48,687 nucleotides of DNA. Source: an uncultured Bacilli bacterium. GTDB lineage: Bacteria; Bacillota_I; Bacilli_A; RF39; UBA660. The notes beneath the pieces are model-generated. The model had not been told where the DNA came from. It saw only the letters and a program-made list of their open reading frames with translations, and did not search any database. Positions within the stretch are counted from its first letter, which is position 1. Every line of letters starts with the position of its first letter. Of the stretch, positions 1,775 to 48,101 are shown piece by piece. The stretch covers positions 1 through 48,687 of the forward strand of contig CALVWP010000005.1 of assembly GCA_944367495.1 (NCBI GenBank), in the 5' to 3' direction. The translations under genes were made by a program, and so were the position numbers.

Positions 1775-2551
1775 TTATTTTACTTCATCTAATTCATTTA
1801 ATTCATCGACAATAGAATCATGATTATCATAAACATCTGTAATTTCGTGATCACTAACTCTAACTAAAGTTGTACCTTTAACTCTAAACTTTGTCATATC
1901 AGAATCGTAATTAGTTTCATCACTTAAATAATTTTTATTAAAACTACTACTTAAATCAGCTGTATATATTTTAGGAGCATCTTCGCTAGCTGAAATTGTT
2001 TGAATTAAAGTTGTATATTCGTTTAATCTAACATCATCTTCATCTTCTATTAAAACGTAAAATGTTCCATTAATGTTAAGCATTGATCCAATCACAATAC
2101 TATCGTATTGAATTTCTGTTGCTTCTTTATTTTCTTCTTCAGCCGCTTCCTTAGCTTTATTAGTAACAACTACTGTCACACCATAGAAAACTACAATAAT
2201 AGCTGTTACAATTAAAACTATTTTTATTAATTTAGAAAGTTCATTAGAATCATTATTCTCATTATAATAAAGTTGTTTACGTGCCTGTTTTATATTTTCT
2301 TTCTTTTCTTTCTGCTTTTTAGTTTCTTTTTCAGGTTTTACTTGCTCCTTAACCTCTTCCACTTTAACTTCTGCTTGAGTATTTTTCTTTGGAGTAGTAG
2401 CCTTTTTTGCAGTCGTTGTCTTCTTTGTTGTTTTACTAGTAGTAGTTTTTTTAGTTGTACTTGTTTTTTTAGTACTATTTTTACTTGAACTAGTTTTAGG
2501 TGCTTTTTGTGCACTAGCTTTACCCTTTTTATTTTTTTCATTTTCTGCCAT
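1775..2551 (-). CDS. Membrane-anchored protein with a Lys/Thr/Ser-rich low-complexity N-terminal region
   Basis: Long ORF with K/T-rich tract (TSSSKNSTKKTSTTKKTTTSKTTKKTTTAKK), one TM helix (LIKIVLIVTAIIVVFYGVTVVV) and a C-terminal globular part. Start moved to ATG 2551, which follows GGTGA; the track start is a GTG inside that RBS. Confidence 0.6.
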   Translation of the reverse strand: MAENEKNKKGKASAQKAPKTSSSKNSTKKTSTTKKTTTSKTTKKTTTAKKATTPKKNTQAEVKVEEVKEQVKPEKETKKQKEKKENIKQARKQLYYNENNDSNELSKLIKIVLIVTAIIVVFYGVTVVVTNKAKEAAEEENKEATEIQYDSIVIGSMLNINGTFYVLIEDEDDVRLNEYTTLIQTISASEDAPKIYTADLSSSFNKNYLSDETNYDSDMTKFRVKGTTLVRVSDHEITDVYDNHDSIVDELNELDEVK

Positions 2552-2683
2552 TTCAATCACCTGAAAGCATTATAGCACATTTTTCCCACTTTTTAAACTT
2601 TTAATTGTTATAAAAGCTTTAAATATAGCCACATTATTATTATGAATCGTTTTAAAACAAATAAACTAACTATAAAAGTTAGT

Positions 2684-3676
2684 CTATTTGCTCACTGGAA
2701 GTACTGATATTGAATTAGCCACATTTAAAAGCTCACTTTCACTCATGTTATCAGCCACCACATAATATTCAATTCCATTACTAATCCAACTTACCATATT
2801 ATCTGAAACCGCTGCTACACTCGTTGCCATCTGATAAGGCTCACCATAAACTGATACGATTGCCAAATCATCACTTACAGATGCTGTTTGTTCAACTAGC
2901 ATAAATGGGCTGTCACCCTCAAATGTCATAATAACTCTTTGACCATTTTCTAAATCGACGGTTTCCTTATCAGCTAATTGTGTATTTTCAGGAATATACA
3001 TTGGATAAATATCACCATCTATTTTACTAACTGTTTCAGTTTCACTTTCCGTAGCTGCTGTCTTCATATTATTATCTAATGAAAAATAATCATCTTTAAA
3101 TTCAGCTTTTAAATCGACTTTTTTAAATGTCATTTTTATTAAAGCTTCCTCATCTTCATTTAAAACCTCAACCTTAGTTGGAATTAACTTTTTATCAAAA
3201 TAAATTTTCTGTTTAATTAAATCACTATTATTTGGATAATTTACTCCTGTAGTAAAAATATAATTATCGCTAGTTTCCTTAAATTCTTTATCACTGTCGT
3301 TTTGAATATCTGAAAGTAATGTTTGAAGTAAGTATACTTGTGAATTATTGTATGGCCAGTCACTTTGGAATTTAAAACTTTTATTTAATGTTGGTGTCAA
3401 AACATAAACCCCATCACTATTTTTCAAAATTATTTGTTCATGATTATTTGTTTTGTTTTTTAAAGATACTCTAAACTTGTCATTTTTACTATAAGAAGCA
3501 TCGACATCATATGTATAAACATCATCATTATTTATTATCTCCATCTCACCAGTTAAATTATAACCATCTAAACCATTAATCTTTTTTTCTAAATCCTTTT
3601 CCGCATCTTTAACCGTATATTTTCCACATCCTACCATTAAAAAACACGCACACAAAATTAAACAAATTTTTTTCAT
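2684..3676 (-). CDS. Lipoprotein, possibly LolA-fold/DUF4367-like
   Basis: Lipobox signal peptide MKKICLILCACFLMVGCGK. Start taken at ATG 3676 after GGTGA. The family assignment is weak. Confidence 0.6.
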   Translation of the reverse strand: MKKICLILCACFLMVGCGKYTVKDAEKDLEKKINGLDGYNLTGEMEIINNDDVYTYDVDASYSKNDKFRVSLKNKTNNHEQIILKNSDGVYVLTPTLNKSFKFQSDWPYNNSQVYLLQTLLSDIQNDSDKEFKETSDNYIFTTGVNYPNNSDLIKQKIYFDKKLIPTKVEVLNEDEEALIKMTFKKVDLKAEFKDDYFSLDNNMKTAATESETETVSKIDGDIYPMYIPENTQLADKETVDLENGQRVIMTFEGDSPFMLVEQTASVSDDLAIVSVYGEPYQMATSVAAVSDNMVSWISNGIEYYVVADNMSESELLNVANSISVLPVSK

Positions 3677-3776
3677 CTTTTTCACCATCTTTCTGCTTAA
3701 ATATATGGATTTTATTTTTATTTATGAATAATTTTTAAAAAATAAACCATTATAAATATTAGAGGAAGGTGAAAAA

Positions 3777-3977
3777 ATGGAAATATTACAAAAAGTATGT
3801 TTAATTCTAACAATTATAGGTGCAATTAACTGGGGATTAATCGGTTTACTTGATTTTAATTTAGTATCATTTTTGTTTGGAGAAATGTCCATGCTATCGA
3901 GAATAGTTTATTCCTTAGTTGGTATTGCCGGTCTAATCAATATAGGACTATTATTTACCCACTTAGAAGACCATTAA
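3777..3977 (+). CDS. DUF378 family small membrane protein
   Basis: 66 aa with two TM helices. GAINWGLIGLLDFNLV is typical of DUF378. RBS GAGGAAGGTGA lies upstream. Confidence 0.7.
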   Translation: MEILQKVCLILTIIGAINWGLIGLLDFNLVSFLFGEMSMLSRIVYSLVGIAGLINIGLLFTHLEDH

Positions 3978-3979
3978 AA

Positions 3980-4009
3980 AATCTATCACAAATGATAGAT
4001 TTTATTTTT
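3980..4009. terminator. Bidirectional rho-independent terminator between convergent genes
   Basis: 9-bp stem AATCTATCA / TGATAGATT with loop CAAA, followed by TTTATTTTT. An A-run on the other side serves the minus-strand gene. Confidence 0.6.
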
Positions 4010-13585: not shown

Positions 13586-13652
13586 ACCTATACTTGCTTT
13601 TTAGCTATTTTACTGCATTTATTTATTCACATACATTTTTTATATATTTTAT

Positions 13653-13798
13653 ATTACTAGCATTATCCCTAAAAATTCGTGTCAATTGCTTAGATCATCA
13701 AGCAATTGACAATCCCTTGCGAGGTCTCGTTTTCACTCGCCCCGCTTTCCAAAACTCCTTTGGAGTTTTGCTTATGTGAAAAACTTTCATTTATCACC
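13653..13798 (-). repeat. Conserved 146-nt post-VR module, copy 1, with two perfect hairpins (13681..13710 and 13750..13770)
   Basis: Identical to 46363..46508 (offset exactly 32,710 bp) except inside the two hairpin loops. Stems are GTCAATTGCTT/AAGCAATTGAC and CAAAACTCC/GGAGTTTTG. Confidence 0.9.
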
Positions 13799-15064
13799 CT
13801 AATTTATCACAAACGGATCTAAAGCTTCTCCACTTCCACTCAAGCTGATATCTGAACTTAGAGTAATGGCGGGAAGAACCGCAATAGCATTACGCGCGGT
13901 GTAGCTGTCCAAATAGCCGTAGGTGCGCACAACAAAGACGCTGAAAGAATCACTGGCATAAGGCGATATTGTCCAATAATCTGTTCCTTTAACTAGCCAA
14001 TTCGTTGTTTTACATGTATTATAGTTATCATTATTTAAACTTAAACTTCCACATTGATCTTTGTTTGTATTGGCTCTTAAATATTCACTGGCTGTAATGA
14101 GTCCTACACTGGCTGTCTGTGACTGTGTTCCATTTTCAGCTGCTATTTGATCGGCTAAATCGTTATTATCATAAGTTTCTCCACCTATACTCCATGTACT
14201 AGGTACTATCTTATCTTGATTTGTCGTTATACTCTCTAAATATTCGCCATTTAAATATGTCTTTAAATCAGCTGGTCTATCCCAACTGTTTGAACCCATT
14301 GATACACCAGTTGTATCAAATGTTCTTTTGGAAAGTAATTCATTTCTGACAATCTTTATTCTACCATCTGCTTCGACTGAAAGTATTCGCCATGTTTCAT
14401 TGTTAAAAGTGATATAGTTGTTAGGATTAGTTCCTTTATAAATAAATCTACCACTTTCATATTCATCTTGATATAATCCATCACCTTCAGTAACAGCTAA
14501 TGCTTTTAAATCATCTGAAGTAATTTCAGATGGTGTTGGTGGGATTACTGTACCATTACTTTGTCCATAATCTAATGTTACCGTAATTGTGGCAGTCGTA
14601 TTTTCTGGTTGACTGGTAATACTTGGGTTATAAGTTACTATTACCGTTAATATATCAGTCTCTGATGCTTTTAATTCATCTCCCTCTTCTATTCCACTTG
14701 TCTCAAACGTTATAGCTTCATTATTTGAATTATTTACTTTTATGCTATTTAAAACAGCATCTATATTTCCCTCATTAGCTACCGTTATATCATATTTCAT
14801 CGAATCTCCCGGTGATACTAAATTTGTTTTAAAAGTAGCTGTTGTATCTGTATAACTAGGTTCTATGGCATTACTTGCACTCCCACTTTGTACATTACTT
14901 TGTATATCAGTTATTCTAACTAAGAAATTACTTCTTATATTAGATGTACCGGTTATTTTTAACTGACTTTGAAATGCGGCATAACCTACTACCATTATCA
15001 ATAATATCGCACATAGTCCCATTATCATATAATTTCTCTGCGTCCTATTTAATCTTCTATTCAT
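13799..15064 (-). CDS. DGR target protein, remote copy: signal-anchored secreted/surface protein with a hypervariable C-terminal domain
   Basis: Paralog of 46509..47777. N-terminal anchor NYMIMGLCAILLIMVVGYAAF. The C-terminus contains VR1. Start taken at ATG 15064 after GGGAGTGA; the track start is a GTG inside the RBS. Confidence 0.85.
   Translation of the reverse strand: MNRRLNRTQRNYMIMGLCAILLIMVVGYAAFQSQLKITGTSNIRSNFLVRITDIQSNVQSGSASNAIEPSYTDTTATFKTNLVSPGDSMKYDITVANEGNIDAVLNSIKVNNSNNEAITFETSGIEEGDELKASETDILTVIVTYNPSITSQPENTTATITVTLDYGQSNGTVIPPTPSEITSDDLKALAVTEGDGLYQDEYESGRFIYKGTNPNNYITFNNETWRILSVEADGRIKIVRNELLSKRTFDTTGVSMGSNSWDRPADLKTYLNGEYLESITTNQDKIVPSTWSIGGETYDNNDLADQIAAENGTQSQTASVGLITASEYLRANTNKDQCGSLSLNNDNYNTCKTTNWLVKGTDYWTISPYASDSFSVFVVRTYGYLDSYTARNAIAVLPAITLSSDISLSGSGEALDPFVIN
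13857..13966 (-). repeat. DGR variable repeat VR1 (remote target), including IMH at its 3' (low-coordinate) end
   Basis: 110 bp, collinear with TR 46230..46339. In the variable part, 19 of 20 differences fall at TR adenines on the coding strand; one non-A change is at 13923. The IMH-type end GCGGTTCTTCCCGCCATTACTCTAAG is identical to VR2. Confidence 0.9.
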
Positions 15065-15144
15065 TACTTTCACTCCCTATTTTCTAGTATAAATACTCAT
15101 AGCTATTTTATACCAAATTGTTATAAATTCTATCTTATAGTTAA

Positions 15145-39454: not shown

Positions 39455-39472
39455 AAATAACTCCTTTTATTT
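39442..39472 (+). terminator. Rho-independent terminator between convergent genes
   Basis: Stem GGAGTTA / TAACTCC with a 9-nt loop, followed by TTTTATTT. Confidence 0.55.
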
Positions 39473-40579
39473 GTGCCTACCAATTTCATCATTCTTAAAA
39501 TATTTAATACTATCTTCAAAATCTCGAAGTTCTTCATCTGTCATGTTCAAAAAGCCCCTATACATTGTTTCAATTGAACTACTAATTTCTTTATTACTGT
39601 TTAAAACATTAATTAATTTTTTCACTTCTAACAGTTCATCTACTGTTAATCCTTTCAAAGAATCCATAATTTGATTTTTTAAAATCGTCTTCTTACCAAG
39701 ACCTCTTCTTCTAATTTTCTTAGGTTCAGTTATATTAACTGGTAAACTTTCTTTATTAAAAATCTCTGGTGCATCAACCTCTAAAGGCTGAATTTTTTTA
39801 AACACACCTTCATCTAATCCTTCAGGAAATAATTCCTCTATCTCATCATCATTAACTACTGGTTCTCTATTTAAAATTCTCATTATTTCCACTAAAATAT
39901 TATTACTATCATTAAAAATTTCCTCTCTTTTTTTTGGCATATTAACCATATCTTTTAAATCGTTAATTTGCCTACTAAGCTTTGATAATCTAAATTTTAA
40001 ATTATCTACCATCTTCTGATTGTTATTATCTTTTTTTATCTCAACCCCAACAACACATAAAATATTATCTTTAAGCATCGTCGTAAAAATCCTCACTTGA
40101 TAACCTTTAAATTCTAAAACTTTAAAAGGAAAATTATTATTCGTATAAAATTTCGCTTTCGTATTATCAGCCATATCAACACCATATATTGCATTTTCTA
40201 AAGTCTTCTTAACCTCACCATAAACTTCCTCTGGTATACTCTTCAAATCAGCTAAAAAATATGGTTTGCCAGCTGGAGTTTTTGCAAAAACTAACTGATG
40301 AACAACTTCTCTTTTTTCTTCTTTATTTTCTCCTTTAATATATTTCACGCAGTACATTAACTTTTCTTCCAAATCATGTATATCACTATCAAGTTCATGA
40401 TTGTCATTTTCACTATTTAATTCTCTTAAAGTTTTAATATTTTCTGCCAAAGCATCGCAAATTTTATTTATTTTAATATCTGCATTATATTCACTTAACT
40501 TAGGTAAAACACCATCCAGCTCATCTAGCGAACTTGTTTCAATTTTAGCCACATAAGCCTTAACTTCCTCTTCCGTCAT
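39467..40579 (-). CDS. Hypothetical 370-aa protein with a central RelE/gp49-like segment
   Basis: Central KVLEFKGYQVRIFTTMLKDNILCVVGVEIKKDN resembles the beta-core of RelE/ParE/phage gp49 toxins. It is flanked by acidic helical regions. The match is weak and by eye only. Confidence 0.4.
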   Translation of the reverse strand: MTEEEVKAYVAKIETSSLDELDGVLPKLSEYNADIKINKICDALAENIKTLRELNSENDNHELDSDIHDLEEKLMYCVKYIKGENKEEKREVVHQLVFAKTPAGKPYFLADLKSIPEEVYGEVKKTLENAIYGVDMADNTKAKFYTNNNFPFKVLEFKGYQVRIFTTMLKDNILCVVGVEIKKDNNNQKMVDNLKFRLSKLSRQINDLKDMVNMPKKREEIFNDSNNILVEIMRILNREPVVNDDEIEELFPEGLDEGVFKKIQPLEVDAPEIFNKESLPVNITEPKKIRRRGLGKKTILKNQIMDSLKGLTVDELLEVKKLINVLNSNKEISSSIETMYRGFLNMTDEELRDFEDSIKYFKNDEIGRHK

Positions 40580-40655: not shown

Positions 40656-41085
40656 TTAATTTTTCAGTAAATTATAACAATTTCCCCACTTTAAATGGCC
40701 TTTATAACTATTTATAATTTGTAAAGCTTTTCTTTCATCCACCTTACCCATTTTTATAACCCTCATTTTTCTTTTAAACCGCTTCTTTGTGTCTTTCCTA
40801 ACTTTCATAATAATTTTATTATTCCAAATATAAAACCTAAATCCTAAAAAACCTATACCCTCTTTACTGACATTAATAATTTTCGTTTTCTTATTTAATT
40901 TTAACTTATATTTACTAACCATTTCCTCTATTTTCTTTAAACAATACTTTAAATATTTCTTGTCAGAGGAAAGTAATAAACCGTCATCCATATACCTTAT
41001 GTAATATTTAATGTGTAATTTTTCTTTAATAAAATGATCCAATTCATTTAAATAAAATACCGCCATGATTTGACTAGTCATATTC
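40656..41085 (-). pseudogene. DGR reverse transcriptase, C-terminal fragment (split by RIT insertion)
   Basis: Begins ..IGN-MTSQIMAVFYLNELDH (RT motif 4, SQ). Contains RYMDDGLLL (YxDD catalytic motif) and a thumb-like C-terminus. The frame continues from 44539 once 41092..44542 is removed. Confidence 0.88.
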
Positions 41086-41115
41086 CCTATATTATGTAAA
41101 TCTTTACATAAAATT

Positions 41116-41193
41116 GGTTATAGCAACTAAAATATTATAGAAAGTAATATGTGAGAAAGCTTATATTTACAAGAATTTATTTTATTAATTTTT
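41116..41193. repeat. RIT terminal inverted repeat, left
   Basis: GGTTATAGCAACTAAAATATTATAGAAAGTAATATGTGAGAAAGCTTATATTTACAAGAATTTATTTTATTAATTTTT is the exact reverse complement of 44461..44538. Confidence 0.9.
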
Positions 41194-41251
41194 GCATAAT
41201 ATTATTGCATTTTTTTAATAATTTTGAAAATACTAGTTTTAGGTGAATTTT

Positions 41252-42475
41252 ATGGAACGATTAAATTTGAAAGATTTATTGAACCGAGCTGAAAAAATTT
41301 TAAGAGAAAAAAAATATAGTGAGAGTACAATTCAAGATTATAAGTATGTTTGGAAAAAATTTTATAATATATGTGAATTATGTAATATAAAATATTTCGA
41401 TTTAGAATTGGCAAAAAAATTTTTAAAAATATATTATAATATTGATTTAAAAAATGGAAAAGGAAGATTATATACAAGAAGAATGCGTAGTATATATGTA
41501 TTAGATTCTATTGATAGGAATAAACCAATAAAAAATTTTAGACCTAAAGTAGAAAAAAGGTTACCAGAAGAATTTAATGATATTTTTTATGAATATGATG
41601 AATATTTAAAATCTAATTATTCTTATAATACTATAATGGCAAGTGAGAAAGTATTAGTTGATTTTTTTAAATATTTAAAACAAAATAATATAAATTCAAT
41701 AGAAAATATAGCAATTCAAAATATATATAATTTTGTAAATTCTATTAATACTCAAAAATATTCCTTAAATACAATATATGAAATTAAATATAAATTAAAA
41801 AATTTTTTTAAATATTTATATAATAATCATAAATATAAATTTGATGGAACTGATATTTTTCCAAAAATTGCAAAATTTGAAAGAAGTAAATTGCCATCTT
41901 ATTATACAATAGATGAAATAAATCAAATTTTAAAACAAGTAGATAGAAATACAAAAAAAGGAAAACGAGATTTTGCAATTCTTTTATTAGCAATTGTATA
42001 TGGATTAAGAAACTCAGATATTGTACATTTAAAAAAAGAAAATATTTTATGGAATGAAAATAAAATTGAGTTAGTTCAATATAAAACTAAAAGATTATTA
42101 GAATTACCTTTAACTGAAAATGTGAAATATTCATTATTAGATTATTTAAAAAATGCAAGACCAAAAATTAACACACCATATATTTTTTTACCAACAAAAC
42201 CACCTTATACTTATACTGATATGAAAAATTATTCTTCATTATATAAATCAGCTGAACAATATATAAATAAAGCAGGTATAGATGTAAAGAATAGAAAAAG
42301 AGGATTACATTCATTAAGACATAGTCTTGCATCTAATATGTTAAAAAATAACATTGAAATATCAACAATTTCAGGAGTCTTAGGTCATAGTAACATCAAT
42401 GTTACAAATATATACTTAAACATAAGTGAAAATCAGTTGAGAAAACTTGCATTGGAGGTTCCAAAATATGAATAG
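41252..42475 (+). CDS. Tyrosine recombinase, RIT subunit A-like
   Basis: Catalytic residues: R (YGLRNSD), HSLRHS, GHSNINVTNIY. Start at ATG 41252 after AGGTGA. Confidence 0.85.
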   Translation: MERLNLKDLLNRAEKILREKKYSESTIQDYKYVWKKFYNICELCNIKYFDLELAKKFLKIYYNIDLKNGKGRLYTRRMRSIYVLDSIDRNKPIKNFRPKVEKRLPEEFNDIFYEYDEYLKSNYSYNTIMASEKVLVDFFKYLKQNNINSIENIAIQNIYNFVNSINTQKYSLNTIYEIKYKLKNFFKYLYNNHKYKFDGTDIFPKIAKFERSKLPSYYTIDEINQILKQVDRNTKKGKRDFAILLLAIVYGLRNSDIVHLKKENILWNENKIELVQYKTKRLLELPLTENVKYSLLDYLKNARPKINTPYIFLPTKPPYTYTDMKNYSSLYKSAEQYINKAGIDVKNRKRGLHSLRHSLASNMLKNNIEISTISGVLGHSNINVTNIYLNISENQLRKLALEVPKYE

Positions 42476-43430
42476 TAATAACTTTATAGGACCTTTTAAA
42501 AATGTTGCTCCATTATATATTGAATATAAAAAAAGTTTAGGATTTGAGGCTAAGTCAGAATATAATGAATTGAAAAAATTAGATAGATATTTTTATAATA
42601 AAGGAATTAATGAAGTAAAACTTACAAAAGATATGGCAGAAGAATACGGAATTTTAAGAGAAAATGAATCTCCTAAAACTCAAGCCAAGCGATTATCTAT
42701 ATTAAAACAATTTGCTGTATATTTGCAAAAAATAGGATATTCAGATGTATATGTACATCACATAAAGCCTAATAAAATTGATTCCAAATTTAAACCATAT
42801 ATCTATTCAGAAAAAGATTTAAATATGATATTTGAATATTTAGACAAGCACCAATATGATACTAATTCAATATTTAATCGCGTTTTACCAATATTAATTA
42901 GAATACTATATGGGACTGGGCTTAGAAAAGGTGAAGTTATTAATTTAAAAAATGAAGACGTAGATCTGAATAAAAACATTATAACTATTTATAATGGCAA
43001 AGAAAATGTTACAAGAATAGTTCCAATCTCAGAAAGTCTTTCAGAATCAATTAAAATATACAAATCGAAATTTTTATGTAATAATCAATATTTTTTATGT
43101 GATTCTAAAGGAAATAAAATCAATTATCATATTACAGAATATTTTCAAAAAATATTAAAAAAAATAAATATATTGCGACCAGATGGGACTCCTCCAAGAT
43201 TTCACGATTTTAGATTTACATTTGCAGTAAATGCATTAGAAAAAATGGATAATAGTGGACAAGACTTATATACAACATTGCCTATTTTAAGTAAATATTT
43301 GGGACATAAAAATATAGAAGCAACAGAATATTATTTATTGTTAGCTAAAGATTATTTCGTTAATATAACTGATAAAGAGGAAAAATATTATAATGATTTT
43401 AAATTTATTAAGGATGATGAAAATGAATAA
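42468..43430 (+). CDS. Tyrosine recombinase, RIT subunit B-like
   Basis: R (GTGLRKGE), HDFRFT, GHKNIEATEYY. Start at ATG 42468 after GGAGG, in an ATGAATAG overlap with the upstream stop. Confidence 0.85.
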   Translation: MNSNNFIGPFKNVAPLYIEYKKSLGFEAKSEYNELKKLDRYFYNKGINEVKLTKDMAEEYGILRENESPKTQAKRLSILKQFAVYLQKIGYSDVYVHHIKPNKIDSKFKPYIYSEKDLNMIFEYLDKHQYDTNSIFNRVLPILIRILYGTGLRKGEVINLKNEDVDLNKNIITIYNGKENVTRIVPISESLSESIKIYKSKFLCNNQYFLCDSKGNKINYHITEYFQKILKKINILRPDGTPPRFHDFRFTFAVNALEKMDNSGQDLYTTLPILSKYLGHKNIEATEYYLLLAKDYFVNITDKEEKYYNDFKFIKDDENE

Positions 43431-44439
43431 AAAGGAATTAGATTATTATTTACAAAGGTTTTTAGATATTGAATTAAAAAAAAGTATTAATGTTTCTGAA
43501 AATACTATTATTTCGTATAAATTTGCTTTCATATCGCTTTTAGAATTTATTATTAAAAATTATAATAAAAATATTAAAGATATAAAAATTGAAACAATAA
43601 ATAAAAAAGTTATTATAGAATATTTAAATTATTTAGAATTAGTAAAGAAAAATTCTATTTCAACTAGAAATCAAAGATTAGCGGCAATAAAATCTTTTTA
43701 TAATTATTTAGCACTTGAAGAAATTGAATATTTGCCACTATGCAATGATATTCTTTCAATAAAAACAAAAAAAAGCAATCACAAAACAGTAAAATATTTA
43801 TCAAAAGAAGGTGTAAAAGAAATATTATCTTTACCAAACACTTCGACTAAGCAAGGTATTAGAGATTTAGCTATATTAACTTTATTATATGATTCTGGAG
43901 CAAGAGTTCAAGAATTAATAACGTTAAACATATGTGATTTAAATTTAAAAAATAAAACATTAAATTTATATGGCAAAGGAAGAAAAAATCGTACAATACC
44001 TTTATTAAGACAAACAATAAAAATTTTAGAAAAATATATTAAAATCTATAAGATGAATTTTAATAGCCCTAGTTTGTTATTTTTTAATAGTAAAAAAGAA
44101 GCTCTATCAAGAATGGGTGTAACTTATATAATAAATAAATATGTAAAAATAGCTAAAAAAAAGAACCCAATAGAATTTCAAATAAAAGTAACACCACATA
44201 TTTTTAGACATTCTAAAGCAATGCATCTTTTAGAAAGTGGAGTGAACCTAATATATATTAGAGATTTTTTAGGTCACGAAAGTGTAACAACTACAGAAAT
44301 TTATGCTAAAGCAAATCCTGAGATAAAAAGAAAAGCAATAGAAACAAATTCAAAAGAACTTTCAAAAACGATTCAATTTTCAGATAAAGAAAAAAAAGAT
44401 TTATTATGGTGGCTTAAAAATTCTTTAAAAGAAAATTAA
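43423..44439 (+). CDS. Tyrosine recombinase, RIT subunit C-like
   Basis: R (SGARVQE), HIFRHS, GHESVTTTEIY. Start at ATG 43423, in an ATGAATAA overlap with the upstream stop. Confidence 0.85.
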   Translation: MNKKELDYYLQRFLDIELKKSINVSENTIISYKFAFISLLEFIIKNYNKNIKDIKIETINKKVIIEYLNYLELVKKNSISTRNQRLAAIKSFYNYLALEEIEYLPLCNDILSIKTKKSNHKTVKYLSKEGVKEILSLPNTSTKQGIRDLAILTLLYDSGARVQELITLNICDLNLKNKTLNLYGKGRKNRTIPLLRQTIKILEKYIKIYKMNFNSPSLLFFNSKKEALSRMGVTYIINKYVKIAKKKNPIEFQIKVTPHIFRHSKAMHLLESGVNLIYIRDFLGHESVTTTEIYAKANPEIKRKAIETNSKELSKTIQFSDKEKKDLLWWLKNSLKEN

Positions 44440-44460
44440 TATTTTTAATAAATATTATGT

Positions 44461-44538
44461 AAAAATTAATAAAATAAATTCTTGTAAATATAAGCTTTCT
44501 CACATATTACTTTCTATAATATTTTAGTTGCTATAACC
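44461..44538. repeat. RIT terminal inverted repeat, right
   Basis: Exact reverse complement of 41116..41193. About 10 further bp inward match with one mismatch. Confidence 0.9.
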
Positions 44539-45231
44539 TATAGGAAGTCCCTTACCTTTTTCGTATAATGGAATATTTTCTATCTCTTTAATCACTTTCT
44601 TATAATGATTATTTAAAATATTCATATTTTGCACTTTATTTAACTCTTTATCTTTTAAAAACTGTATTTCCCCATTAACATAATCCATATCAGTCGATTT
44701 TATTATTTTCCAAATAATATTTAAACTATCTTTATCTTTTATCTTTGTTTTTAATAAATCAAATAAAATTTCATGATCAATACTATAAAAATATTTACTT
44801 ATATCAAATTTCAAAGCATAAATAGTATTCCCCTTTAATTCATTTAAATATTTCTTTAAATATCTAATTCCATAGTGCGTTCCCTTATTTTTTCTAGTAG
44901 CTACATTCGTATCAATCAAACATTTATCTAAAACCGGTAATAAAATCTTATCAGCTACCACATGATTAATTAACTTATCACTAATATTTTGACTCATTAT
45001 AATTCTATATTTTGGCTCTTTAATTAAAAATATATTATACTTACTAGGCATATAATTTTTATCATTAATTATTTTTTTAACTCTAGCTAAATTAACCGAA
45101 TAAAAATCTTCAAACTTTCTTATTTTAACTTTATTCTTAGTATTAACTCTTATTTGCCTTAAATAAACTCTCTTAATATCTTCAAAAGTAATACTATCAT
45201 ATAACTTTCTTTTCATATTTAATCCATCCAT
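44524..45231 (-). pseudogene. DGR reverse transcriptase, N-terminal fragment (frame runs into the RIT repeat and stops)
   Basis: RT motifs 1-3 (EPKYRIIMSQNISDKLINHVV, ATRKNKGTHYG, ALKFDISKYFYSIDH). Native sequence ends ...KGLPIG at 44539. The last residues YSN and the stop are encoded by the RIT inverted repeat. Confidence 0.88.
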
Positions 45232-45541
45232 AAAGTAATCTTAAAATATCAAGTAAATGCAGACTAACCTTTTGATATTTTTTATATGAAATATATTTCT
45301 TATCACAAGATACTTTCAAATAAAAATCAAGCATCTTAATTTTTACAATAGCCTTAAATTGATATTTTTTTCTTTTATCTCTAAACTCGTTAGCCATATA
45401 TAAAATTTCTAATAAATCATAAAGCTCTTCTCTAATCTTATCTTTTAATACCCTCTCATTACTCGGAAAATTAACAACAATCTTATCTAAATATAAAATA
45501 GTTTTCTTTAACTCGGTTATAATATTTAAACTATCTTTCAT
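45197..45541 (-). CDS. avd: DGR accessory variability determinant (Avd-like four-helix-bundle protein)
   Basis: 114 aa, basic and all-helical. FPSNERVLKDKIREELYDLLEILYMANE pattern. Sits directly upstream of the RT and overlaps it, as Avd genes typically do. Confidence 0.75.
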   Translation of the reverse strand: MKDSLNIITELKKTILYLDKIVVNFPSNERVLKDKIREELYDLLEILYMANEFRDKRKKYQFKAIVKIKMLDFYLKVSCDKKYISYKKYQKVSLHLLDILRLLYGWIKYEKKVI

Positions 45542-45942
45542 ATGATCTCTTCAATAGCCTCCAAAATAATACTTATCTTAGAAGTATCTTTCAAAACCAT
45601 AAGTTTTTCACATATCCTATCAATCCTAACACTAATACTATCATCACATCTAACATATTTATCATAATTATTGTTATTAAATTTCTTTTTAGTAATATTT
45701 ACACCCTCAACAATCAAATAATTAATCTTAAAACATTTAAGTTTATCAGTAACTTTGTTATAAGCAATCAAAGGAAAACCAACTCTTCTAACACCACCAA
45801 CCTCTTTAATCTTATAATCAAATAAATTATTCATTAAATAAGTATCTTCACCATAAGTTTCATAAAAATTCCCAACTTTAATTAAAATAACATACTTGTC
45901 GTATTTTTTCTTCTTTTCACTGTAAATATCATAAATTTTCAT
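45538..45942 (-). CDS. MutS domain I-like (mismatch-binding-domain-only) DGR accessory protein
   Basis: YVILIKVGNFYETYGEDTYLMNNLFDYKIKEVGG..VRRVGFPLIAYNKVTDKL aligns by eye with E. coli MutS [51 protein letters not shown]. The Phe-x-Glu motif (FYE) is retained. ATGA overlap with avd. Confidence 0.65.
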   Translation of the reverse strand: MKIYDIYSEKKKKYDKYVILIKVGNFYETYGEDTYLMNNLFDYKIKEVGGVRRVGFPLIAYNKVTDKLKCFKINYLIVEGVNITKKKFNNNNYDKYVRCDDSISVRIDRICEKLMVLKDTSKISIILEAIEEII

Positions 45943-45956
45943 AAAACATCCCTCCC

Positions 45957-45997
45957 ATAAAAAAGCAATACCAAATAATCAAATAAAGGTATTGCTT
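45957..45997 (-). terminator. Terminator/attenuator-like hairpin between the TR region and the accessory genes
   Basis: Minus strand AAGCAATACC, 15-nt loop, GGTATTGCTT, then TTTTAT, immediately followed by RBS GGGAGGG and ATG 45942. Confidence 0.45.
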
Positions 45998-46229
45998 AAA
46001 TTTAAAAATATAGGTTTTATCATATCATATCTTTTTCGAAATTTCTAAAATTATAATTTACATATTCCATCATAATTATAACTCTTTCCTACTAAAGTTA
46101 TCTCTGACTATATTTAGTTTTTAGTCAGTAATTTTATTAAGGATATATGAAACCCTAATTACTAACAAGGAATAACACTTATTCTCTAATCTTTTCTTTA
46201 TGACCATATTAGTTCATAAACCATAGTGC

Positions 46230-46339
46230 TTTAGAGAGTTGGCGGGAAGAACCGCATTAGTATTATTCGCGTTGTTGTTGTTCAAATTGCCGTTGCTGTT
46301 CACATTAAAGACGTTGTTAGAATTACTGGCATTAGGCGA
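46230..46339 (-). repeat. DGR template repeat (TR)
   Basis: 110 bp. The coding-strand reading encodes SPNASNSNNVFNVNSNGNLNNNNANNTNAVLPANSL (15 AAY codons, 33 adenines in the variable part). Collinear with VR2 and VR1. The 3' end (IMH*) GCGGTTCTTCCCGCCAACTCTCTAAA differs from the VR IMH at 4 positions. Confidence 0.92.
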
Positions 46340-46362
46340 ATAAAACTAACAAAAAGTCCCAC

Positions 46363-46508
46363 ATTACTAGCATTATCCCTAAAAATTCGTGTCAATTGCT
46401 TGATGATCCAAGCAATTGACAATCCCTTGCGAGGTCTCGTTTTCACTCGCCCCGCTTTCCAAAACTCCAAAGGAGTTTTGCTTATGTGAAAAACTTTCAT
46501 TTATCACC
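46363..46508 (-). repeat. Conserved 146-nt post-VR module, copy 2, with hairpins at 46391..46420 and 46460..46480
   Basis: Identical to 13653..13798 apart from the two hairpin loops (GATGATCC vs AGATCATC; AAA vs TTT). Confidence 0.9.
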
Positions 46509-47777
46509 CTAATTTATCACAAACGGATCTTCAACTTCTCCACTTCCACTCAAGCTGATATCAGAGCTTAGAGTAATGGCGGGAAGAACCGCACCAGTAC
46601 TAAACGCGCCGTCGCTGGACAAAGTGCCGTCGCTGCTCACACGAAAGACGCTGGAAGAACTACCGGCATAAGGCGATATTATCCAATAAAAACTGCCTTT
46701 AAATAGCCAATTCGTCGTTTTACATATATCTTTGTTATCATTATTTAAACTAAAACTTCCACATTGTTCTTTATTTGTATTGGCTCTTAAATATTCACTG
46801 ACTGTAATTAAACCTACACTGGATGTCTGTGACTGAGTTCCATTTTCTTTTGTTATTTGTCCAGCTAAATCATTATTATCATATGTTACTTCTCCTATAC
46901 TCCATGTACTAGGTACTATTTTATCTTGGTTTGTTGTTATACTCTCTAAATATTCGCCATTTAAATATGTCTTTATATCTGCTGGTCTATCCCATTCATT
47001 TGAGCCATATGTTCCACCAGTTGTATCCCATGCTCTAGCCGAAAGTAATTCATTTCTAACAATCTTTATTCTGCCATCAGCTTCTACTGATAATATTCGC
47101 CATGTTTCATTGTTAAAGGTGATATAGTTGTTAGGATTAGCTCCTTTATAAAAGTATCTTCCACTTTCATATTCATCTTGATATAATCCATCAGCTCCAT
47201 CTGAAGCAAGTGGTAGAGTTATTCCTCCTACTGTTGGTCCTTCTGGCGTTGGTGGAGTTACTGTACCATTACTTTGTCCATAATCTAAAGTTACGGTAAT
47301 TGTTGCTGTCGTATTTTCTGGTTGACTGGTAATACTTGGGTTATAAGTTACTATTACCGTTAATATATCACTCTCTGATGCTTTTAATTCATCTCCCTCT
47401 TCTATTCCACTTGTCTCAAACGTTATAGCTTCATTATTAGAATTACTTACTTTTATACTATTTAAAACGGCATCAATATTTCCCTCATTAGCTACCGTTA
47501 TATCATATTTCATCGAATCTCCTGGTGATACTAAATTTGTTTTAAAAGTAGCTGTTGTATCGGTATAACTAGGCTCTATGGCATTACTCGCACTCCCACT
47601 TTGTACATTACTTTCTATACCAGTTATTTTAACTAAGAAGTTACTTGCTATATTAGATGTACCGGTTATTTTAAGCTGGCTTTGAAAAGCCGCATAACCT
47701 ACTGCCATTATTAAAAGTACTGCACACAGTCCCATGATCATATAATTTCGCTGCGTCCTATTTAATCTTTTATTCAT
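46509..47777 (-). CDS. DGR target protein, element-adjacent copy: signal-anchored secreted/surface protein with a hypervariable C-terminal domain
   Basis: Paralog of 13799..15064. Anchor NYMIMGLCAVLLIMAVGYAAF. VR2 encodes SPYAGSSSSVFRVSSDGTLSSDGAFSTGAVLPAITLS. Start at ATG 47777 after AAAGGAG. Confidence 0.88.
   Translation of the reverse strand: MNKRLNRTQRNYMIMGLCAVLLIMAVGYAAFQSQLKITGTSNIASNFLVKITGIESNVQSGSASNAIEPSYTDTTATFKTNLVSPGDSMKYDITVANEGNIDAVLNSIKVSNSNNEAITFETSGIEEGDELKASESDILTVIVTYNPSITSQPENTTATITVTLDYGQSNGTVTPPTPEGPTVGGITLPLASDGADGLYQDEYESGRYFYKGANPNNYITFNNETWRILSVEADGRIKIVRNELLSARAWDTTGGTYGSNEWDRPADIKTYLNGEYLESITTNQDKIVPSTWSIGEVTYDNNDLAGQITKENGTQSQTSSVGLITVSEYLRANTNKEQCGSFSLNNDNKDICKTTNWLFKGSFYWIISPYAGSSSSVFRVSSDGTLSSDGAFSTGAVLPAITLSSDISLSGSGEVEDPFVIN
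46567..46676 (-). repeat. DGR variable repeat VR2 with IMH
   Basis: All 22 differences from the TR in the variable part fall at TR adenines on the coding strand. The GC-rich GGTTCTTCCCGCC element is followed by the IMH. Confidence 0.92.
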
Positions 47778-47830
47778 TGCTCTCACTCCTTTATTATGAA
47801 TATTTAGTCGCTTATTTATGCTACAATTTT

Positions 47831-47978: not shown

Positions 47979-47997
47979 CCCCCCCCCCCCCCCCCCC
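47979..47997. repeat. C19 homopolymer (G19 on the gene strand) between -35-like and -10-like hexamers
   Basis: Counted directly: 19 consecutive C. Minus strand reads TTGAAG-TTT-G19-TAAAAT, a 22-nt spacer. Confidence 0.9.
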
Positions 47998-48076: not shown

Positions 48077-48101
48077 TTTTTTTTTCCCCCCCCCCCCCCC
48101 C
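48077..48101. repeat. T9C16 compound homopolymer (G16A9 on the gene strand)
   Basis: Counted directly. Nearby are A11 at 48050..48060 and G7 at 48163..48169. A consensus TTGACA (RC of 48109..48114) lies 7 nt upstream of G16 on the minus strand. Confidence 0.9.

Follow-up and report, generated by a model that had tools for sequence, protein, structure and literature searches.

The 48,687-nucleotide (nt) contig CALVWP010000005.1 from an uncultured Bacilli bacterium, analysed here over its whole length and called the window below, carries a locus whose closest described counterparts are the diversity-generating retroelement (DGR) of the Bordetella phage BPP-1 and the recombinase-in-trio (RIT) elements. 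The RNA of the Bordetella DGR was resolved by cryo-electron microscopy (bioRxiv 10.1101/2023.10.23.563531). It contains a duplex between the upstream region and the spacer, named the "cPRT Stop" duplex, which is situated two nt from a template:primer duplex formed by the template repeat (TR) and the spacer. The final spacer nucleotide of the template:primer duplex, A56 (Sp A56 in phage BPP-1), primes the cDNA. One stem-loop directly follows the TR; another, short and succeeded by adenosines, comes after the Stop duplex. Similar RNA elements exist in 207 of 278 DGRs (same reference). The DGRs that contain a gene for a MutS-like protein (MSL) constitute the "Architecture D", with 16 examples including the Legionella DGR (Wu et al., NAR 2018, PMC5758913), and the DUF6273 domain of DGR targets was modelled as C-type-lectin-like (PMC10743442). 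As for the RIT elements, their mobility is undemonstrated and their target specificity untested (Van Houdt et al. 2012, PMC3414803; Ricker et al. 2013). No paper linking RITs with DGRs was found in the literature searched.

The window very probably contains a chromosomal DGR of a low-GC gut member of the Bacilli, with a TR, a neighbouring variable repeat (VR2) and a remote one (VR1), which was recently active and was then silenced by the insertion of a RIT element. An adenine-confined TR/VR pair was observed, together with a nearby reverse transcriptase (RT) of the DGR clade, an Avd protein, an RNA fold in cis, and rewriting of the VRs from the TR. The window is devoid of an intact, expressible RT gene, as the only one is split at GLPIG/N (the slash marks the insertion point) by an insertion of 3,445 bp. 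The DGR itself is of a known type, and the link between RIT and DGR is the more novel part.

Differences between the Template and Variable Repeats

The 110-nt TR was compared by a programmed ungapped scan with both strands of the window. Exactly three copies of the repeat were found, all on the minus strand and collinear, with zero indels. The TR (46230–46339) is outside any real gene and within the conserved RNA fold presented below. VR2 (46567–46676) is located at the 3' end of target gene 2 and is identical to the TR at 84 of the 110 positions, whereas VR1 (13857–13966), at the 3' end of target gene 1 and 32 kb from the TR, is identical at 86 positions out of 110. Within nt 1–84 there were 22 mismatches between VR2 and the TR, every one of them at an adenine of the TR (a T on the plus strand), corresponding to 12 A>G, four A>C and six A>T substitutions. 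The same part of VR1 showed 20 mismatches, 19 at TR adenines and a single G>C at position 44. The hypergeometric probability of placing 22 out of 22 mismatches on the 33 adenines present among these 84 positions was 2e-12, and that of at least 19 out of 20 in VR1 was 4e-9, which excludes a chance origin of the adenine pattern. All of the 33 adenines were at codon position 1 or 2 and none at position 3, and 26 were changed in at least one VR. They belong mostly to AAY codons, 15 of which are in the variable part with one more in the 3' zone, so that each of the 15 Asn codons can become any of 15 amino acids and never a stop.

The variable part is followed by a 15-nt GC block, GCGGTTCTTCCCGCC, which occupies nt 85–99 of the TR and is identical in the TR and both VRs (46592–46578 in VR2). 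It resembles an initiation of mutagenic homing (IMH) site. Beyond it, the two VRs shared the same four mismatches with the TR, at positions 101 (A>T), 102 (C>T), 103 (T>A) and 110 (A>G). The fact that both VRs keep TT at positions 101–102 instead of the AC of the TR places the 3' junction of the transfer within the identical GC block.

A preliminary description of the window, in which the repeats were aligned by hand, had reported the absence of indels between TR and VR2, the location of all 22 variable-part differences at TR adenines, the mutation of 26 of the 33 adenines when both VRs are pooled, the GC-rich block followed by four mismatches, and the 15 AAY codons which allow 15 amino acids without a stop. 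The programmed alignment and the recounts gave the same values, and the translations matched the recomputed ones exactly. Substitutions at other bases at a comparable frequency, or indels, had been named as observations that would speak against the pattern, and neither was seen among the three repeats. The one-way flow of information that it deduced fits with the position of the 3' junction. It also proposed an IMH in the VR facing an IMH* in the TR: the corresponding pattern is present, with a GC block found family-wide, and the assignment itself is by analogy.

The only non-adenine mismatch, at position 44 of VR1, deserves a comment. The TR has a G at this position in the window and an A in the related locus L016. 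The C of VR1 is best read as the relic of an ancestral adenine and reflects drift of the TR, which implies that VR1 was last rewritten before the change of the TR at position 44.

Rewriting of the Variable Repeats in Related Loci

Eighty related loci were compared. They originated from bins of uncultured gut "Bacilli" or "Tenericutes" of humans, rabbits, ruminants and other hosts, some of them being circular genomes of 1.2–1.5 Mb. Among these loci, 38 TR/VR pairs had at least 75% of their mismatches at TR adenines, and the VR was usually situated about 300 nt upstream of the TR. The longest run of identity between TR and VR was GC-rich in most of the 38 pairs and often near the 3' end, with a median length of 17.5 nt and a GC content of 65%.

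Two relatives were particularly informative. In L016, whose flanks are approximately 85% identical to those of the window, there are 11 differences between its TR and that of the window. At nine non-adenine sites distinguishing the two loci, the L016 VR has the base of the L016 TR, and both window VRs have the base of the window TR. The second relative, L086, is 99.4% identical to the window over 8.2 kb. Its TR differs from that of the window solely at position 36, where each VR follows its own TR. The L086 VR and VR2 differ at 24 out of 99 nt, 23 of which correspond to TR adenines, the remaining one being position 36, while the 170 nt following the VR are identical. Such a heavy divergence of the VR in a near-identical strain, next to 170 identical nt, indicates that homing was recent. 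The VRs track their own TR at non-adenine positions in three lineages (window, L016 and L086). At the protein level, the entropy over 16 close sequences (14 database homologues and both window targets) was 2.77 bits where the TR has Asn codons; other VR positions averaged 0.55 bits, and residues outside the VR 0.33.

Other differences were visible around the VR. The 12 nt after the GC block (window 46565–46576; L086 397–408) showed eight differences between the two strains, ATTACTCTAAGC (AITLS) versus CTCTATCTTTCC (ALYLS). Adenine mutagenesis of the TR 3' end was considered as the origin of the L086 patch and was not retained: CTCTATCTTTCC differs from the TR at seven positions, five at adenines and two at other bases, and it matches the consensus of the paralogues, making recombination an equally good explanation. 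Either homing occasionally reaches beyond the GC block, or the patch stems from an exchange with a paralogue. Upstream of the VR and outside the homology with the TR, residues 364–366 of target 2 (GSF; 46677–46700) showed 1.8–3.3 bits among close homologues, and short clustered patches of differences between the window and L086 were present from 46700 to 46900 in an otherwise identical gene. The patches upstream of VR2 may result from mosaic recombination among paralogues.

An RNA Fold around the Template Repeat

The region surrounding the TR was aligned in 20 loci and the covariations were counted, with slid controls and 500 shuffles for comparison. Three helices emerged, all encoded by the minus strand. 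P1 associates AGGGAUAAUGCU (46369–46380), located 29 nt upstream of the TR, with AGUGUUAUUCCU (46168–46179), and its 5' strand corresponds to the upstream strand in the "cPRT Stop" duplex of Bordetella. P3 pairs UCUCUAA (46231–46237), which corresponds to nt 103–109 of the TR, with UUAGAGA (46183–46189), in which the A at 46183 is the putative priming nucleotide. The P2 hairpin (46197–46220) stands between the two strands of P3. The core of the spacer RNA (46168–46237) thus goes from the 3' part of the TR to the P1 3' strand and holds P3, P2 and this strand, with a linker of 3 nt between P3 and P1. The proportion of paired cells reached 97.9% in P1 (9 of the 12 pairs changed on both sides), 82% in P3 (5/7) and 81% in P2 (4/7). 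For the three helices together, 89% of the cells were paired as compared to about 50% (42–54%) in the slid controls, 18 of the 26 pairs had double-sided changes, and the observed pairing values were reached in 0 of the 500 shuffles. Covariation therefore recovers, in a distant lineage of Bacilli, the type of fold seen by cryo-electron microscopy in the Bordetella phage; its role in the window would be the one that the phage structure suggests. The TR 3' end must pair with the spacer in P3, and the VR 3' end encodes AITLS, which explains the existence of the IMH* mismatches. The scan of positions 45800–46800 against Rfam with E up to 1 matched zero families, and the RNA is absent from the curated ones.

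The rest of the spacer (45959–46167, minus strand), described from the alignment of relatives, shows a putative stem-loop past P1 and then a run of A, a conserved block AAAUAUAGUCAGAGAU, and a terminator-like hairpin (45997–45959, minus strand) ahead of the MSL gene. In seven loci (L008, L013, L015, L017, L020, L021 and L023), the TR with its P1/P2/P3 core was found downstream of the RT instead of upstream. The RNA module seems to move as a unit within the RT family. The GC-rich stretch between VR2 and the TR was also evaluated as a conserved structured RNA and was discarded, as the first hairpin alone was conserved in position and the rest was limited to close relatives.

The Reverse Transcriptase Gene and the RIT Element

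The genes of the cassette are in the order target 2–TR–MSL–avd–RT, all on the minus strand. The N-terminal part of the RT (44537–45231, minus strand) extends to GLPIG, after which the frame enters the inserted element and stops at 44524. It covers positions 7–107 of RVT_1 and residues 1–232 in the tblastn alignment. The C-terminal part (40656–41091, minus strand; open reading frame (ORF) 40656–41081) starts with NMTSQ, contains YMDD and the thumb, and covers positions 126–205 of RVT_1 and residues 231–374. Rejoined at GLPIG/NMTSQ, the halves form a protein of 374 aa with the IGNMTSQ and YMDD motifs, which is 98–99% identical to three uninterrupted public proteins (P0121, with 99%, P0122 and P0123). 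Its closest match in the PDB was the bRT of the Bordetella phage (8ub7_A, E = 1e-34, both halves aligned), ahead of the RTs of group II introns (E = 1e-13). The NCBIfam scan of the RT gave zero matches to DGR-specific models, and RT models were matched only below their cut-offs. A tblastn search showed that no second RT is encoded in the 48.7-kb window.

The RIT element (41092–44536, plus strand) contains ritA (41243–42475; 410 aa), ritB (42468–43430; approximately 320 aa) and ritC (43423–44439; approximately 338 aa), all on the plus strand and overlapping by 8 nt at 42468–42475 and 43423–43430. Each of the three proteins possesses a Phage_integrase domain, and the HxxR...Y catalytic motifs are visible in the translations. 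The element has 118-nt inverted repeats (78 nt perfect; arms at 41113–41230 and 44424–44541), a terminal palindrome (41092–41111), and it is flanked by a 6-bp direct repeat, CCTATA, at 41086–41091 and 44537–44542. The empty site GGACTTCCTATAGGGAATATG exists in L086, L087 and L088, and reads GGACTTCCTATAGGGAATATGACT in L086, in a locus that is 99.4% identical. Another copy is present in L016 (2745–6174) at the same codon, 99.8% identical over 3,430 nt between flanks that are approximately 85% identical, and its interior is inverted.

RitC homologues with at least 64% identity were followed into contigs through protein clusters, and L081 was added. The subfamily was present at the same RT codon in 17 loci from many samples and in both orientations (window 41092–44536; L016 2745–6174; L081 1–2070; L089–L098; L102–L106). 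All the contexts with enough flank had the organization MSL–Avd–RT N-fragment, trio, RT C-fragment. The insertion point follows the I-G codons of LPIG/N, with a direct repeat of 5–6 bp and the terminal palindrome on the side of the RT C-fragment. The N-side junction is always ...CCNATWGG/TTATAGCAAC... and the C-side junction always ...GTTGCTATAACC-N-ATWTTATGKAAA-NNN-TTTMCATAA-NATWGG/NAAY..., although the host RT genes are only 50–86% identical. The rejoined (empty) junction of the RT reads CCTATAGG/GAAT, the candidate target sequence of the RIT is CCTATAGGGAAT, and an excised circle would join GTTGCTATAACC..TTATGTAAAGATTTACATAATATAGG/TTATAGCAAC. When the element and one repeat were removed in silico, an RT frame of 350–397 aa was restored in each of the six occupied loci having both flanks. 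The comparative signs of mobility are the near-identity of the L016 copy between diverged flanks, the empty sites in L086–L088, and the presence in 17 loci with diverged RT genes. It is quite likely that this RIT subfamily is site-specific for the LPIG/N-coding sequence of the DGR RT.

A more distant trio (RitC 52% identical; L110–L114) was observed inside the istB gene of an IS21-family element, indicating that the DGR target is specific to the present subfamily. It appears that RIT subfamilies differ in their dedicated targets. A metagenome scan with RitC revealed only one close copy, that of L081. In this locus (2160–4000) the C-terminal part of the RT is hit again, at YMD/D, by a group II intron (GTGCGAC..., with a 438-aa intron RT ORF), so that a single DGR RT gene was struck by two different mobile elements. 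The window element is inverted relative to most copies. The flipped loop of the RIT terminal palindrome was considered as proof of independent insertions in opposite orientations, an argument weakened by the fact that loops flip elsewhere in the locus too, both from strain to strain and from paralogue to paralogue. The differences in orientation could arise via inversion between the long inverted repeats.

Proposed Mechanism and State of the Cassette

As the covariation shows, the RNA from about 46380 to about 45960 folds with P1 joining the sequences that flank the TR and P3 pairing the TR 3' end with the spacer beside a conserved adenosine. We propose that the RT with Avd, and here also the MSL, would self-prime from this adenosine and, as in the rest of the family, would copy the TR into a cDNA with misincorporations opposite the adenines. 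The cDNA would replace the VR of either target, and the observed pattern suggests a 3' crossover in the identical GC block. Such a crossover leaves the TR-specific 3' end out of every transfer and protects the TR itself from being overwritten. The diversified surface would be the ligand-binding face of the DUF6273 (C-type-lectin-like) domain.

Several points weigh against the reading of the locus as a recently active DGR or against parts of this scheme. The sole RT of the window is split, which makes present activity doubtful. Avd matched the NCBIfam model DivGenRetAVD with E = 8.5e-16 and 58 bits, under the cut-off of 80. A promoter/terminator scan gave no convincing promoter candidate for the TR RNA, and the sole terminator-like site in that scan, at 46421–46390, is directly upstream of P1. 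The choice of A46183 as the priming nucleotide and of TR nt 102 as the first templated base, as well as the IMH/IMH* function of the GC block and of the mismatches, are presumed by analogy with known DGRs. A C-type-lectin fold of the VR domain is likewise presumed from the DUF6273 family: the AlphaFold2 models of this domain had a pLDDT below 50 twice (31 sequences for the whole target, 73 for the C-terminal domain), a PDB profile search with the full-length target alignment returned nothing at E ≤ 1, and a search with a second target alignment, extended to E = 10, returned only three coiled-coil peptides with E ≥ 1.

The cassette is most likely off in cis in this genome. The preliminary description had suggested looking for ongoing heterogeneity of VR2; its TR/VR logic stands, and since the split of the RT had been overlooked, ongoing change is not expected here unless the RIT element excises or another RT acts in trans. 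Precise excision through the 6-bp repeats in part of the population would make the cassette switchable, the restored RT allowing bursts of diversification. The full RT frame obtained in silico in 6/6 occupied loci, including RTs only about 50% identical, agrees with such a switch, as do the clean empty sites at 98–99% RT identity, the three complete tyrosine recombinase genes with their catalytic motifs, and the intact reading frames of VR1 and VR2 with their recent turnover. Intact halves and clean empty sites are, on the other hand, equally expected from recent insertions and never-occupied sites. The contigs consisting only of the element ended at or inside the inverted repeats, with neither terminal direct overlaps nor a circular or excised form, and the excision of a RIT has never been demonstrated experimentally. 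We consider the switch unlikely. It is similarly doubtful that the dedicated RIT subfamily, through insertion into the LPIG/N-coding sequence and precise excision from it, turns hypermutation reversibly off and on in these gut Bacilli, beyond being a selfish element with a safe site. Alternatively, an RT and Avd encoded by another DGR in the same genome might act in trans on the TR and VRs. Several DGR RT loci are possible per bin, as L004, L006 and L068 all come from E08__bin338, and the core elements of the RNA are conserved family-wide. This has to be confronted with the absence of a second RT from the 48.7-kb window, with the many specific RT–RNA contacts of the Bordetella system (bioRxiv 10.1101/2023.10.23.563531), and with the covariation of the helix sequences between loci, which argues for cognate pairing, and we regard such a service as rather improbable.

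A split RT working as two polypeptides, with the C half starting at the natural Met of GNMTSQ, is suggested by the ATG of the C-terminal frame at the junction, the purine-rich AGGGA situated 3 nt upstream, and the integrity of both halves. The break, however, falls inside the palm, between motifs of one active site; the residue after GN is not Met in L081, L095 and L105; no promoter is evident; and the inverted orientation of the window element relative to most copies shows that the expression context is not conserved. Such a functional split enzyme is highly improbable. There remains the idea that no DGR exists and that the three repeats are ordinary paralogous sequences shaped by mutation or gene conversion. 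The targets do share 83% identity, and the homology of their 3' flanks extends over about 215 nt. Paralogy does not account for mismatches restricted to a single base of one of the copies and to the first two codon positions, for the adjoining RT, Avd and MSL genes, for the same pattern in 38 related pairs, or for VRs which follow their own TR across lineages. Its probability is negligible, and ordinary paralogy is effectively refuted. A DGR silenced by the RIT insertion is the reading that we retain.

Targets and Genomic Setting

Both targets are genes for surface proteins. Target gene 2 (46509–47786, minus strand) encodes 425 aa with an N-terminal hydrophobic helix, an Ig-like domain (AlphaFold2 pLDDT of about 90) and a C-terminal DUF6273 (Pfam E = 4e-7, above cut-off). 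VR2 corresponds to residues 371–398 of the 425, at the end of the DUF6273 match. Target gene 1 (13799–15073, minus strand; 424 aa), which carries VR1, is surrounded by housekeeping genes. The spacers measure 227 nt from target 2 to the TR and 287 nt from the TR to the MSL gene (45538–45942, minus strand; 134 aa), the product of which matched Pfam MutS_I with 32.2 bits for a cut-off of 20.6. The Avd gene (45197–45541, minus strand; 114 aa) matched Pfam bAvd with 48.1 bits for a cut-off of 40, and there were zero HRDC matches among the cassette genes. The gene rplQ is immediately upstream of target 2, indicating that the locus is chromosomal and not obviously phage-borne. The GC content of the window is 28%. 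Immediately downstream of the RT is a 370-aa ORF (39467–40579) that matched no family; its position is conserved in L016, L086, L087 and L088.

The only long homopolymers of the window, G19 (47979–47997) and G16 (48086–48101) on the coding strand, are situated between rplQ and target 2. The G19 tract is flanked by TTGAAG and TAAAAT, with a spacer of 22 nt between them, and the arrangement looks like a slipped-strand phase-variable promoter. Tracts of G10–G13 were seen an estimated 200–400 nt upstream of DGR targets in L012, L050, L055 and L071.

Two perfect palindromes separate the target 2 stop from the DGR RNA, both given on the minus strand: palindrome 1 (46481–46460) with a 9-bp stem, and the terminator-like palindrome 2 (46421–46390) with a 13-bp stem. 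Palindrome 1 recurs at 13750–13770, 86 nt past VR1. The palindrome loops downstream of VR2 are exact reverse complements in the window and in the 99%-identical strain L086 (approximately 490–590), with TTT/AAA and GATCAT/ATGATC. The loops are likewise reverse-complemented between the flanks of target 2 and target 1 of the window, the target 1 type being the L086 type. This suggests that either the loops were inverted or the paralogous flanks underwent gene conversion. The 3' flank of target 1 (13650–13870) copies that of target 2 through both palindromes and the P1 5' strand (AGGGATAATGCT). The homology stops about 8 nt past this strand, and no TR follows. The target 1 flank appears to be what is left of a duplicated module of target plus spacer, or of a second cassette since deleted.

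Comparison with Known Systems

The TR/VR organization is that of a textbook DGR and constitutes one further example with unusually good comparative support, its strength being the existence of near-identical strains that differ almost only at the VR positions matching TR adenines. An activity prediction made from TR/VR pairs alone would wrongly call the window locus active. The RIT subfamily offers a 5–6 bp core, a palindromic end, occupied sites with their empty counterparts, and only one biological target, namely the DGR RT gene; together these features make RIT integration and excision directly testable. If the switch were real, hypermutation in these bacteria might be gated by a mobile element. 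Gene-interrupting elements that are removed by site-specific recombination exist elsewhere, such as the sigK skin element and the nifD, fdxN and hupL elements of heterocyst-forming cyanobacteria (cf. PMC4874684). Like the skin and nifD-type elements, the window element bears recombinases and interrupts a coding sequence that would be restored if it were precisely removed; unlike for them, excision is here hypothetical, and the likeness concerns the switch only.

Compared with the BPP-1 DGR (mtd-avd-TR-brt), the window locus has the same adenine-specific differences, a VR at the C-terminal end of the target, an Avd, and a GC-rich identical block followed by TR/VR mismatches of the IMH/IMH* kind. 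The bRT is the closest solved relative of the window RT, and the RNAs share a duplex between upstream and downstream sequences, a short linker, a duplex in which the 3' end of the TR pairs with the spacer, and a stem-loop in between. In contrast to BPP-1, the window locus is chromosomal, possesses an extra MSL gene and has an interrupted RT. Its order, target-TR-MSL-avd-RT, makes the upstream strand of P1 intergenic instead of part of the avd end, and it has two targets, one of them 32 kb away, with DUF6273 in place of Mtd. The small MutS_I-like gene beside avd and the absence of an HRDC gene are similar to Architecture D (PMC5758913), a likeness of gene content; possible differences from the Architecture D examples are the uncultured gut Bacilli as host lineage and DUF6273 as target domain. 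The Treponema denticola DGR (tvpA and remote targets) also combines one TR with an adjacent target and more distant ones dispersed in the chromosome, but its accessory gene is of the HRDC type, whereas those of the window are MSL and Avd.

The inserted element resembles the RIT elements, for which that of Cupriavidus metallidurans CH34 is the archetype (PMC3414803), by its size of about 3.5 kb, its three tyrosine recombinase genes, which overlap by 8 nt and encode about 410, 320 and 340 aa, its terminal inverted repeats with a palindrome, and the occurrence of near-identical copies in different genomes. Unlike the known RITs, which have inverted repeats of roughly 30 nt, the window subfamily has inverted repeats of 78–118 nt, matched empty sites are on hand, and it has one defined target, the I-G codons of LPIGN in the DGR RT genes of 17 loci.

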